Virus record (IMG/VR): IMGVR_UViG_3300011008_000043
Location: 1 to 64,000 of that record
DNA: 64,000 bases
Source of the DNA: a virus
Lineage: Duplodnaviria; Caudoviricetes
Direction: 5' to 3' (one strand)
The notes under the pieces were generated by a model that saw only the letters and a program-made list of their open reading frames with translations, was not told where the DNA came from and did not search any database. A program made the position numbers and the translations under genes. Numbering within the stretch: position 1 is the stretch's first letter; each line of letters begins with the position of its first letter. Positions 3,001 through 14,150 of the stretch are shown in pieces.

Positions 3001-4714
3001 CAAGGAAGATCGTGAAAACATCCCAGAGTTGGTTGAGAAGCGCAATACAGCGCGGGCAGCACAGGAAGCAGAAGACGCCGGATACCGGGCTGCTGTGTCT
3101 GATAAACAGTTCCTTAACGATCTTGAAAATAAGCGTCAGTCAGCACTTTACACTTATCTCAATTCGGAACAAACCGAAGCGGATTATGATAAATTGATGG
3201 CTGTCGGTTCGGAGATCAAAGAGGCTGGAAAGAACTATCAGTGGTCTGATCTTTTGGGCGCGCCGATGAATTTCGAAGCAATCCAACCGGAAGAATTGTT
3301 CGGGAAAACGACTGGCGGATGGTTCGGCACAGGGCTCTTCGGGCACTGGGAAGCCGACAAAACTCTGAACCCGTTCGGCAGTGCAATGGACGATCTGAAT
3401 CAACAGACAGACAGATGGATTGATAGAAGCGAGGAATACGGCGCTCAGGCCAACACATACGACGAAAGCCTGAACCGCCATTACCAGAACGAAGTCCGGG
3501 CGCAAGAGTTGAACGCATTCTCTGAACTCGGCTTTGAATCTGGGTTGACAACATCAACGGTTCAGGAAATGGCAAATAATTTCGCGAATCTTGATACGGC
3601 AGCGCAGGCCGCTTTCGTGAACGCTCTGGCTGGAATCCAGCAGCTTAACACGGAATCGGACTACATTGCGGAAGACCAGAAGGTGAACGTAAAGCAGGCA
3701 TACGAGACAGCGCAGAAGTCCATTACAGACAGCGGCTCGAAAGCCGTGCTTAACGACATCACAACGGAGCTAACGCATCTGAAAGCGACATACGATCAGT
3801 TTGGGACAGACGCACAAGGGAAGACGCTTATTCCAGAGGCACACGCGGAGACAGCAAAAGCAGACCTCGACGCGATAAACGCCGCACTGGAAAGCCTGAA
3901 CCTTGACAAAATATCCGACCTGAGCGAGATCGGAAGCGCGATTGAGCAGATCAACGCGCTCGACCCGTCCGTGATTTCCGATATGGACGCGACAGGGGTA
4001 GAAGCCGTTGCAGCCGCGTTGGAAGGCATTGGAGGCAGCGCAGAAGAAACCATATCGAAGCTGGAAGAAACGAAAGCAGCAGCGGAAGCCCTCAGACAGA
4101 CCTATGAAATGATTATCGAGGATAACGGTCAGGAAGCGGCGGCAAACTGTGCTGCCGCTGGAGCAGCAGCAGAAGGCGCAGCAGGAACCTACTACATCGA
4201 CATCATTACCAGATACTCATCACAAGGAGCGAAGGGCTCTGGTTATCCACAATTACCGCAAATCCCTATCCCCGGTGAAGCAAAGGGCGGTATTTTCGAT
4301 GGAGCTTTCCTCTCGTGGGTAGCAGAGGACGGCCCGGAGGCGATCATCCCGCTCGGCAGCGACAAGCGCGACCGTGGCCTCGATCTATGGCTGAAAGCCG
4401 GACAGATGATGGGCGTAGCAGAGTTCGCCAACGGCGGCATCATGGCCCCGTACACGGGACTGTTTGAAGATGCTCCTGACGATTTCTGGGACGACGACTC
4501 TCCGCGAGAGCTTCCACAGGCAAGCCCGAACAAGAGCAGCAGCGGAAACACGTTCGAGATCATTGTCGAAGCGCATCCGACGTTCGAGATTGAGAACACC
4601 GGCGACGGCGAAGACATACTCGAAAAGCTCAGGTATCACCAGAAAGAGCTGGCTGAAATGTTCGGCGGCGCAATCGCTGACCAGATGGCAGACATCGTAG
4701 CAAACATGGTATAA
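26..4714 (+). CDS. Tail tape measure protein (TP901-family core), 5' end probably outside the window
   Basis: 1562-aa ORF. Typical TMP core (ALSGATNEEFVKLTETAENLGATTKFTATEASEGMQYLAMAGW...), long helical Ala-rich body, C-terminal 'AKGGIF...AEDGPEAIIPL'. The frame has no stop upstream to base 2. Confidence 0.93.
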   Translation: MSMARLQDAQRSIVVVTFIFAGILTTSLKNLTAKAWRVAVRMTDFVTAPFRKLVNMIRSPIMMTLGVTGITMGASSFVTTFKDFTAGMSNVKALSGATNEEFVKLTETAENLGATTKFTATEASEGMQYLAMAGWKTNDIIAAMPGLLDLAAAGGTSLGTAADIVSDVMTAMGMSATEASRAADIFARTATGSNTTIENLGESLKYAAPAAHAFGLSLSEAATITGMMANAGVKGSMAGTALRSSLLGMASPSKSASEAMSKLNLSFADSTGKMKDMRTIIKDLSTAFSGLTEQEKLTYAEDLFGTRGSSAWLAVIEQGADEYERLFKAIDDSNGAAKDMANTQLDNLTGDITLLNSALDGMKISLMKELNPYLRSAVQWVTDKIPMITEKATELVTKIVEKAKDIKNAISDVFNSSEFQNAEGFAGKFFVAWDKLIAEPFTNWWEGGGKQTILDAVAKLGKGLGDLYHGIISGVFAALKGEEVDFDGMNLTGIAKAGAEAAKAFIDSFKEAFDLGGLVNDMPGMLKAGLFGYGAIKVGTGTLSIARTVRDLRLAFGTVAPAAAEAGGAVANVGAQAAAGAAGAGKFATMLGTIGKGLAAIPAWGWVAAAAIAAVAIGVAAYNKAQREHEQALLDTGKAAQQYEEQYVETAQNIERAMATMDEIKKIDLLIEENKGGNAETIARVKEELESVLDKKVLIEAQFARGDITKEEYDALMAQIVDKTVQIKAELIKEGYNEATAQQIIDQYNGIAEGQKTITLILAAKTDLTPDQIQEYVTRLSELMETKTEKELYIKGSGMTANEIKALKEDYDAIKTRTAELEIQINKGQGTMSDDEWNSLVTEYNSLVQQSGEIEIMLKGSEANAEEIKQAQDEVAKLKGEAEGILLKLGYDEGSDLTQSDLNEIAGTLAEIGDKTFAANVALHNTGMSKKEMQALIDKQNELYRTMVETSGGVYTKRDVETGRITQEDFDYWMKDQAAKAAIELASFNAQIKEDRENIPELVEKRNTARAAQEAEDAGYRAAVSDKQFLNDLENKRQSALYTYLNSEQTEADYDKLMAVGSEIKEAGKNYQWSDLLGAPMNFEAIQPEELFGKTTGGWFGTGLFGHWEADKTLNPFGSAMDDLNQQTDRWIDRSEEYGAQANTYDESLNRHYQNEVRAQELNAFSELGFESGLTTSTVQEMANNFANLDTAAQAAFVNALAGIQQLNTESDYIAEDQKVNVKQAYETAQKSITDSGSKAVLNDITTELTHLKATYDQFGTDAQGKTLIPEAHAETAKADLDAINAALESLNLDKISDLSEIGSAIEQINALDPSVISDMDATGVEAVAAALEGIGGSAEETISKLEETKAAAEALRQTYEMIIEDNGQEAAANCAAAGAAAEGAAGTYYIDIITRYSSQGAKGSGYPQLPQIPIPGEAKGGIFDGAFLSWVAEDGPEAIIPLGSDKRDRGLDLWLKAGQMMGVAEFANGGIMAPYTGLFEDAPDDFWDDDSPRELPQASPNKSSSGNTFEIIVEAHPTFEIENTGDGEDILEKLRYHQKELAEMFGGAIADQMADIVANMV

Positions 4715-11020: not shown

Positions 11021-12100
11021 ATGCCGAATTTTGATCTGGCGAATCTGGCCTTGCAGGCCGTTTGCCCTAACAACGTACTGCTGTACGACGACAAGAATCT
11101 TCCCAGCGCCATGGTGAAGATTCCGAAAATGACCTATGCGCAGCTCGGTCTGGGAGACAGCTCCGCGACGCACCCGGCATTCATTGTGAACGGGCAGGAA
11201 GTCAGCGCGATCTATATCTCCAAGTACCAGAATGTGGTCATGAACGGACGCGCCTATTCCCTCCCGGGAGAAGACCCGCGAGCGACCATCACCGGCGACG
11301 CGGCTCTGGCAGCGTGTACCGCGAAGGGTGCTGGCTGGCATCTGATGACCCGCGCCGAGTGGGCGTTGCTGGCCCTGTGGTGCAAGCAGAACGGCACTCA
11401 GCCGACGGGAAACAATAACTACGGCAAAGATACCAGCGAGACGCTGTACAAAGCCATCCCGTCCATGGACAGGGACAGCAGCAACAGGATTCAGAGAGTT
11501 GCCACCGGAACCGGCCCGCTGGAATGGAGCCACGACGGAACCCCGGCTGGAATCTGGGATTTGAATGGCAACGTCTGGGAGTGGGTCGGAGGCATCCGCA
11601 CTGTGTACGGAGAGCTTCAGATTCTGGCGAACAACAATGCTGCCGACAGCGACAATTCGCAGGCCGCGACTTCCGCTCAGTGGATGGCGATCAACGCGGC
11701 GACCGGCGAGCTGATGACCCCGGACGGCAGCGGCACGACTTCTGGCTCCGTCAAGATCGACTGGGTATCCAGCCATGCCCGGTATGTTTCGACCATCACC
11801 ACGCAGGAAGCGACAGGACGCTCCTGCACGTTTGAGAGCGTGGATTGCGACAGCACCATTGGCGACGATACAAAGCTGCTGCTGCAGGCCCTCGCTCTTC
11901 TGAAGTACGACGACACCAGCGGCGCGTACAACGGTGACTATTTCTACTTCAACAACGGCGAAGCCGAGCGGGGCTTCCGCTGTGGTGGCGTCTGGGACGG
12001 TGGGGCGACTGCGGGCGTCTTCGACGTCAACGGCGGCAGCTCTTTCCGGTCGGCCTCGCTCACGATCATCGGGTTCCGCTCCGCTTTTGTTGAGCTGTAA
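11021..12100 (+). CDS. DGR target: Mtd-like C-type-lectin-fold (FGE-sulfatase-like) tail adhesin/receptor-binding protein
   Basis: RBS GGAGG then ATG at 11021. 'WHLMTRAEW', 'GIWDLNGNVWEW' and C-terminal 'GG.W..G..AGVF......R....IGFRSA' CLec motifs. The 3' end is the VR. Confidence 0.93.
   Translation: MPNFDLANLALQAVCPNNVLLYDDKNLPSAMVKIPKMTYAQLGLGDSSATHPAFIVNGQEVSAIYISKYQNVVMNGRAYSLPGEDPRATITGDAALAACTAKGAGWHLMTRAEWALLALWCKQNGTQPTGNNNYGKDTSETLYKAIPSMDRDSSNRIQRVATGTGPLEWSHDGTPAGIWDLNGNVWEWVGGIRTVYGELQILANNNAADSDNSQAATSAQWMAINAATGELMTPDGSGTTSGSVKIDWVSSHARYVSTITTQEATGRSCTFESVDCDSTIGDDTKLLLQALALLKYDDTSGAYNGDYFYFNNGEAERGFRCGGVWDGGATAGVFDVNGGSSFRSASLTIIGFRSAFVEL
11967..12087 (+). repeat. DGR variable repeat (VR), 121 nt
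   Basis: Aligns without gaps to 12552-12606 + 12806-12871, with 16 mismatches, every one opposite a TR adenine. Confidence 0.96.
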
Positions 12101-12105
12101 GCTGA

Positions 12106-12144
12106 CCCACCGTAAGCTGTGGGGCATCGCGATAGCGATGGCCC
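12106..12144 (+). promoter_or_regulatory. GC-rich hairpin(s) downstream of VR, DGR target-recognition element
   Basis: CATCGC-GATA-GCGATG stem-loop (12125-12140, extendable by GGG/CCC) plus CCCAC...GTGGG. The position matches the hairpin/cruciform needed for homing in characterised DGRs. Confidence 0.7.
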
Positions 12145-12184
12145 GATAAACCAAAAGAAATTCGCAGAAGGGGACTGAGCAGGC

Positions 12185-12553
12185 ATGGCGGTAGAAGAGT
12201 TCAAAACACTGACGAAAGTCAAGGATATGATGATCTATGCGTACCCGGTGCTTGCTCAGTTCCCGAAAGCGGAGAAGTTTTCGCTGGCGCAGGACATCCG
12301 GCACAGCATGGATCAACTGCTGGAACTCACGATTACGGAAGACAAGAAATATTACAAGAAAACCACGCTCGAAAGCATGGACGTAGAGCTGGCGAAACTG
12401 AAGACGTATGTCAGGCTCGGCATGGAGCTGAATTTTATTCCATTCCACAAATACGAGGTATGGGAAAGACACCTGACAGAAATAGGCAAGATGATCGGCG
12501 GCTTGATGAAATCCGTCAACAGCAAGCCGAAGAACATAGGGAACGAATCGTAG
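12185..12553 (+). CDS. avd: DGR accessory variability determinant (Avd-like four-helix bundle)
   Basis: 122 aa, 'FPKAEKFSLAQDIR...IGKMIGG' motifs, located between target gene and TR; its stop overlaps the TR start. Confidence 0.92.
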   Translation: MAVEEFKTLTKVKDMMIYAYPVLAQFPKAEKFSLAQDIRHSMDQLLELTITEDKKYYKKTTLESMDVELAKLKTYVRLGMELNFIPFHKYEVWERHLTEIGKMIGGLMKSVNSKPKNIGNES

Positions 12554-12871
12554 CGGGGCTTCAACTGTGGTGGCAACTGGAACAATGGGGCGAATGCGGG
12601 CGTCTTCGAATGGAGCGGTCAGACGGGAAACCACTGACCGGATGCTGGCTAATTCGGCGAATATCCCATAGGGACAACGCCGAGCTAAACCGGGAAACCG
12701 GAAATGTGTAGAGACTATATACCAGCGGCCTAAACTCATGGGGAGCAAGGTCAAGAAATAGTCCAGACCGCAACCGAAAGGGCTATGGCAACATAGTGCG
12801 GCAGGCGACGTCAACGGCAACAACTCTTTCCGGTCGAACTCGAACACGAACATCGGGTTCCGCTCCGCTTT
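12552..12871 (+). ncRNA. DGR template repeat (TR), split into exon 1 (12552-12606) and exon 2 (12806-12871) by an intron
   Basis: The spliced TR has 11 AAC/AAT codons in the VR reading frame and 26 adenines. Its 3' end diverges from VR after CCGCTTT (IMH versus IMH*). Confidence 0.95.
12607..12805 (+). ncRNA. Group I intron (compact, IC3/Azoarcus-like, no homing endonuclease), 199 nt
   Basis: 5' exon ends in U, which makes a U.G pair in P1 (CUUC-GAAU-GGAG). Intron ends in G. P2 GGUCAG/CUGACC with GAAA cap. P3 UGCUGG/CCAGCG. P4 AAUUCGGCGAA/AACGCCGAGC. P5 UCCC/GGGA. P6a CCGG-GAAA-CCGG. P7 GUAGAGACUA/AAGAAAUAGUCC. P9 region CCGCA/UGCGG enclosing CC-GAAA-GG and CUAUG-GCAA-CAUAG. Confidence 0.93.
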
Positions 12872-13025
12872 ACCCCGAACGCCAGATGCCGCAGGCTCAC
12901 GGGCCTGCTCCCAGAGCGATGGGTGAGTAAAGGGATTCGAATCCTTGGTCAACCACGGGCCAGAAAAAGAACGGCTGCGAAATCCGCGAAAGCTGATAAG
13001 CGCAGCTCTTCCATGGAGACTGAAT
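12872..13025 (+). promoter_or_regulatory. DGR spacer (Sp-like) between TR and RT with hairpins
   Basis: GCAGGC-TCACGG-GCCTGC hairpin and GGATTCGAATCC palindrome. Position is equivalent to the structured spacer RNA used for cDNA priming in the BPP-1 DGR. Confidence 0.55.
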
Positions 13026-14150
13026 ATGGAGAAATACCAACATGTTTTTGAAAAATTCGTGGAGTTTCGGAGACAGTACGACGGATACCGGCTGGCTCGC
13101 AGATGCAAGCGATTCCGGCCTGAGGTGCTATCCTATTCAGTCAAATTGGAAGACAACATTTTCGACATGATAGACCGGCTGAAAGACCGGACATATCACA
13201 TAGAAGGCGCACACGAATTTTACGAATACTTCCCAAAGAAACGCATCATAACAGCATGGCCTTTTCCGTACCGCGTAGTCAACTGCGCGGCCTATTTGAC
13301 GTTATGGCCCATATACGAGAAGAGTTTTTATGAACACAGCTATGGCAGCATCCCCGGCAAAGGAAGCATCAGAGCCGTACAGCAGGTGCAATACTGGCAG
13401 CGTCAGGCGCGAGCGACCGGAAAGAACACGGTCGCCGGAAAAGCGGATGTAGCGAAGTTCTTTTTCAGGGTTCCGCACGAGGTACAGCTCGACAGGCTGA
13501 TGCGTCCGCTAGATGACCCGAACATGGAATGGTTCTTGCGAACGTCCATCAATGGAGACGGCAGAGCGACAGGACTGCCACTGGAATTTTCCGACGTGGA
13601 AGACGCGGAGAGGATTTTCGGAATCGGGATGCCGGTAGGAAGCCTGATATCACAGATGACGGCGAACGTTGTCTTGACACCACTCGACCATTATATGAAA
13701 CGGGTGGTCGGGATACCGAAATATTGCCGGTACATGGACGATATGTACATACAGGGAGAGAGCAAACAGCAGGTCTGGGATGCCCTCGGAATGATGGACG
13801 GATTTCTGCGAAGGGAGCTGGGCCTGCAACTGAATCAGAAGACGGCGGTCATGCCATACGACAGCGGGATAGAGTTCGTCGGAAGAGTGATAACCCCAGA
13901 CAAGATCACGATCAGAAAAAGCACGACACTGCTGGTCAAAAAGCATCTGAATTACGTCCGGGAGGCATACGACCGCAGAGAAGTCTCGCTGGACTATGCA
14001 GAAAGCGTCATCGTCAGTTACCTCGGATTGCTGAAGCACACGGATTGCGACGCATTAAGGGAAAAGCTCTGCCGGGATTACGTGCTGATACGGCACTCAA
14101 CACCGGAAGAGATTGAACAGGAAAACAAGACCCAATGGATAGGGATTTGA
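13026..14150 (+). CDS. DGR reverse transcriptase
   Basis: 'SYGSIPGKG', 'KADVAKFF', 'GMPVGSLISQ', 'YCRYMDD', 'GLQLNQKT...IEFVG' RT motifs. No maturase/endonuclease extension. Likely ATG at 13026 after GGAGA. Confidence 0.96.
   Translation: MEKYQHVFEKFVEFRRQYDGYRLARRCKRFRPEVLSYSVKLEDNIFDMIDRLKDRTYHIEGAHEFYEYFPKKRIITAWPFPYRVVNCAAYLTLWPIYEKSFYEHSYGSIPGKGSIRAVQQVQYWQRQARATGKNTVAGKADVAKFFFRVPHEVQLDRLMRPLDDPNMEWFLRTSINGDGRATGLPLEFSDVEDAERIFGIGMPVGSLISQMTANVVLTPLDHYMKRVVGIPKYCRYMDDMYIQGESKQQVWDALGMMDGFLRRELGLQLNQKTAVMPYDSGIEFVGRVITPDKITIRKSTTLLVKKHLNYVREAYDRREVSLDYAESVIVSYLGLLKHTDCDALREKLCRDYVLIRHSTPEEIEQENKTQWIGI

Follow-up and report, generated by a model that had tools for sequence, protein, structure and literature searches.

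A group I intron within the template repeat of a ruminant-gut phage DGR, and comparative evidence that the template is spliced before it is copied into DNA

Diversity-generating retroelements (DGRs) are the only known natural machines for targeted protein hypermutation in microbes. That they work through an RNA intermediate was established in Bordetella phage BPP-1, where a td group I intron from T4 was engineered into the template repeat (TR) and was spliced out before cDNA synthesis, so that only ligated exons reached the cDNA and the variable repeat (VR), with adenine mutagenesis seen in the spliced product (Guo et al. 2008, PMC2703419, as cited in Naorem et al. 2017, PMC5703328). Small, ORF-less group I introns are known from tRNA-Leu(UAA) genes (cyanobacterial/plastid type, probably subgroup IC3). 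Full-text literature searches found no report of a natural intron in a DGR template. Here, a ruminant-gut phage is described in which a small group I intron lies within the TR of a DGR, and the VRs of related phages indicate that the template is very probably spliced before it is copied.

The analysed sequence (the window) is 64 kb of a complete, 73,256-nt phage record with direct terminal repeats. Relatives, and the sequencing runs containing similar sequences, come from sheep, goat and cattle gut or rumen metagenomes and from Clostridia bins. A full DGR, with all features on the plus strand, lies between a Mu Gp48-like baseplate gene and the lysis genes, a holin being found downstream of the target gene. 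The target gene (11021-12100) specifies 359 aa from the ATG at 11021, the ORF being open from TTG 10994, and carries an FGE-sulfatase/C-type-lectin-like domain (PF03781, 25 bits against a cut-off of 23.3). It shows a 69% DNA match to the Mtd-like gene of Faecalibacterium phage FP_Lagaffe. The product is a tail-fibre or receptor-binding type protein, and is not a demonstrated adhesin, as the initial annotation had called it. The VR (11967-12087) ends 13 nt before the stop codon, and is followed by a hairpin (12121-12144) with a GC-rich stem and a GATA loop (DNA fold of 12080-12160, z = -3.5), placed as DGR target-recognition hairpins are; its function is inferred by analogy with BPP-1.

Downstream is avd (accessory variability determinant; 12185-12553, 122 aa; PF22296 bAvd, 100 bits against a cut-off of 40), the stop codon of which overlaps the first TR bases. 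The TR is followed by a structured spacer RNA (12868-13005), the presumed cDNA-priming region (a role inferred from BPP-1, PMC5703328), which matches the Rfam RT-14 motif (RF02921) at 44.7 bits, just under its gathering score of 48.1. The motif also occurs in a related contig (L007, 3844-3983; 39.6 bits, again below the gathering score), and in both cases lies exactly between the TR end and the RT start; RT-14 may simply be the DGR spacer RNA of this DGR family. The reverse transcriptase gene (RT; 13026-14150, 374 aa) shows the YMDD motif and a VGSLISQ motif of the [ILV]GxxxSQ kind (Pfam RVT_1, 69 bits), and has 472 relatives at E <= 1e-60.

The VR (121 nt) aligns without gaps to TR exon 1 (12552-12606; 55 nt, 11 A) joined to TR exon 2 (12806-12871; 66 nt, 15 A), with no trace of the 199-nt insert (12607-12805) that separates them. 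There are 16 mismatches, all at TR adenines and eight in each exon, and none at any other base, confirming the initial annotation. The probability that 16 random mismatches all fall on the 26 adenines of 121 positions is about 1.5e-13. The nearest substituted adenines lie 13 nt 5′ and 14 nt 3′ of the junction, which corresponds to 12021|12022 in the VR. The whole phage holds only one VR and one TR, with no intron-free TR copy, so no intact second template can explain the VR.

The insert was identified as a group I intron. The Rfam model (RF00028) matches 12594-12786 at 56.3 bits, above its gathering score of 50 (E 9.5e-13), and the RNA folds better than all 200 shuffles (z = -3.85). Three bases (CGA) are shared by both boundaries, so that four junction registers fit the sequence, but only 12606|12607 and 12805|12806 give the group I signature of an exon ending in U and an intron ending in G. 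This register places the junction after the second base of a Phe codon (TT|C). The intron has no ORF and is of the phage tRNA-Leu(UAA) kind (IC3-like), its nearest relatives found by pattern scans being small introns in tRNA-Leu(UAA) genes of large ruminant-gut phages.

Searches by RT protein, blastn and intron patterns recovered four further DGRs carrying a homologous intron at the same Phe codon: loci L038 (RT 84% identical to that of the window; intron 199 nt), L001 (71%; 205 nt), L041 (61%; 198 nt) and L044 (about 56%, first 52 aa only; 203 nt). An Rfam search of 17 relatives at the gathering threshold had found nothing, because diverged TR introns score below it (33 bits for L001). All other hits were tRNA-gene introns, apart from one in an unidentified setting, and a genome-collection scan gave two intron-free relatives. 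The contig of another relative, with an RT 80% identical to that of the window, has avd and RT 535 nt apart, compared with 473 nt in the window and about 275 nt in two intron-free relatives (L047 and L048), which hints at another TR insert.

In all five TR introns the 5′ exon ends in U and the intron ends in G. Helices P2-P9, including the P3/P7 pseudoknot, could be written out on their alignment; 96% of cells are paired and 10 of 50 base pairs show compensatory changes, against 0-2 in slid controls, while P3 and P7 are invariant and fully paired. The three-base pairing between exon and guide sequence also co-varies, being CUU/GAG in the window, L038 and L044, and GUU/GAC in L001 and L041, which makes sense only if splicing at this TR site is under selection. 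The TR is not translated and has no known role except as a template, so selection for a splice-competent intron fitted to its local exon implies that a spliced TR matters. The TR introns differ from each other by up to 27%, but form one clade apart from the sampled phage tRNA introns (FastTree support 0.997). In the three cases with a VR on the contig (window, L001 and L041), adenine-only changes are seen on both sides of the junction.

If homing proceeds from spliced RNA, as the initial annotation favoured over a DGR frozen by a late intron, then adenine-specific VR variation would be expected on both sides of the junction in intron-bearing relatives, a test it had proposed for the 5′ side. 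This could be examined in the L041 clade, whose Avd protein occurs on 21 contigs. Seven of these, from seven samples in several studies, were compared at the DNA level; all carry an identical 198-nt intron, yet they hold five distinct VRs. All 24 VR-variable sites that are not TR polymorphisms lie on TR adenines, in both exons, and no VR differs from its own spliced TR at a non-adenine base. All six non-adenine TR SNPs, three in each exon, are mirrored in the VR of the same contig (42 of 42 cells); some are private to one contig, and they lie as close as 20 nt 5′ and 10 nt 3′ of the junction. All six are synonymous third-codon positions in the reading frame of the target. The intron (0 of 198 sites) and the spacer (0 of 185) are invariant in this clade, while the TR exons carry 6 SNPs in 110 nt, a split with a probability of about 1e-4. 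Near its 3′ end, the TR of L041 (minus strand) and of L052 lacks one G that its own VR (L041) or other strains' TRs have, a one-base difference in the presumed homing-initiation region that does not reach the VR. RT dN/dS is 0.08 within the clade and 0.05-0.12 elsewhere, including between intron-bearing strains.

The simplest reading is that the intron predates these SNPs and that TR information from both exons has since been written into the VR, which requires precise removal of the intron from the RNA. The likely sequence of events is that the avd-TR-spacer region is transcribed, and the intron folds, with its guide sequence GAG pairing to the last exon bases CUU, and removes itself, joining the two TR halves exactly. 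The RT-Avd complex then primes in the spacer and copies the ligated TR RNA, misreading adenines, and the cDNA replaces the VR at the 3′ end of the tail-fibre gene. Removal by ribozyme catalysis is inferred, in the absence of RNA evidence, as is priming in the manner of BPP-1. For the phage of the window itself, current activity is inferred from relatives, since its only second assembly is identical over 8125 nt and may come from the same data. Homing from spliced TR RNA is nonetheless considered very probable. Read in the frame of the target, an unspliced copy would meet a stop 11 codons into the insert in the window, and 4-34 codons in across the five lineages, even for the 198-nt intron, whose length is a multiple of three. 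This would remove the last strands of the variable domain, so only cDNA made from spliced RNA can yield a working tail fibre.

The best-surviving alternative, although unlikely, is that the DGR is frozen, the intron having entered the TR of this phage, or spread by recombination through already diversified strains, after the last round of homing, leaving the VR pattern as a fossil. Only one VR state is known for this phage, and intron presence is patchy, needing at least three gains or losses on the RT tree. L001 (intron at 3580-3784) is about 90-93% identical to L004, L005 and L017, and differs from them by the exact presence of the intron; its spliced TR equals the intron-free allele of L056 and L063. 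In that clade only 1 of 10 sampled contigs has the intron, and the L001 intron is closest to that of L041 although their RTs are far apart. The intron therefore moves between DGRs or is lost precisely, and any single copy, including that of the window, could be recent. Strains found twice in different samples (L050 = L053, L051 = L054) have identical VRs, so turnover is not fast, and no pair of strains in the sample showed different VRs on the same background. All four combinations of exon 1 and exon 2 TR alleles (positions 19/28 versus 100) occur among the seven L041-clade contigs, indicating recombination or recurrent mutation within the roughly 320-nt TR-plus-intron region. A frozen element cannot be formally excluded, but it would need many crossovers within 10-30 nt of an intron that has no homing endonuclease and that is fixed in 9 of 9 contigs of the L041 clade (two of these judged by gene spacing), and it leaves the maintained fold, the fitted guide sequence and the intact avd and RT unexplained.

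It is less likely still that the intron is skipped without ribozyme splicing, by a template jump of the RT from exon 2 to exon 1, by removal by a host or phage protein, or by occasional DNA-level loss followed by homing. Exact intron-free TR alleles do occur in close relatives, so DNA-level loss is possible, but the junction in the VR is exact in every case seen (three clades and seven contigs), it lies at the canonical exon-U/intron-G sites, and selection keeps the catalytic core and the P1 pairing, which would be needless for a jump or a DNA deletion. An assembly artefact is very improbable: although metagenomic assemblies can misjoin at repeats, and one related contig (L053, at 3600-3917), identical to L050 up to the 3′ part of the TR, then runs into unrelated sequence (either a chimera at the TR/VR repeat or a rearrangement), the two assemblies of this phage agree base for base, a 248-nt contig from a sheep-gut run spans avd, TR exon 1 and the intron start at 98% identity, and the arrangement recurs in five clades and more than ten samples.

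A more speculative, and doubtful, possibility is that a lineage of group I introns has taken DGR template RNAs as its niche, with splicing an obligatory and possibly regulated step of diversification, the ribozyme gating when an intact template exists (for instance through GTP or Mg2+ supply or folding kinetics). The intron may move between DGRs by reverse splicing into TR RNA at CUU-like sites followed by DGR reverse transcription, and may likewise be lost through cDNA of the spliced TR, which would explain its patchy but site-exact distribution.

On the favoured reading, these phages give sequence-only proof of an RNA intermediate in uncultured phages, and show that a template RNA can undergo processing before reverse transcription. 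They also represent a rare case of a ribozyme under selection in an RNA whose only job is to be copied into DNA, and suggest splicing as a possible control point for engineered DGR-based mutagenesis systems. DGR finders that demand a continuous TR/VR match will split or miss such elements.

Compared with ordinary phage DGRs with Avd and a C-type-lectin-fold tail-fibre target, represented by intron-free relatives (L002-L017, L039, L047, L048, L056-L065), the RT family (61-81% identity), the gene order, the Phe codon in the TR and the adenine-only VR changes are shared, but their TR is continuous and the avd-to-RT distance is about 200 nt shorter. Goat-gut contigs likewise hold intron-free TRs of relatives. 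In two intron-free relatives of L001 (L057 and L059), an ungapped comparison shows many non-adenine mismatches from about TR position 69 onward, plus one or two isolated ones upstream, as if the VR were one codon shorter than the TR, so VR and TR are not always the same length in this family.

Many large ruminant-gut phages (up to 413 kb) carry group I introns in tRNA genes, mostly tRNA-Leu(UAA), several with long insertions in peripheral helices. The TR intron shares core segments with the tRNA-Leu(UAA) introns at 67-69% identity, along with a similar size (the two smallest sampled are 205-213 nt), the CUU/GAG pairing, P7 and the 3′ end. It is not a member of that group by host site, which is a DGR template instead of a tRNA anticodon loop (the window holds no tRNA gene), and the TR introns have a distinct P2 and a short P6 (the hairpin after P4), two of them having switched the pairing to GUU/GAC. 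The BPP-1 DGR carrying the td intron has the same gene set and order (target, avd, TR, spacer, RT) and likewise a group I intron inside the TR, but that intron was placed by experimenters as a tag, whereas the intron described here is natural and ORF-less, of a different (tRNA-Leu-like) kind, conserved at one codon in five DGR clades, and has a guide sequence that has co-evolved with the TR exon.
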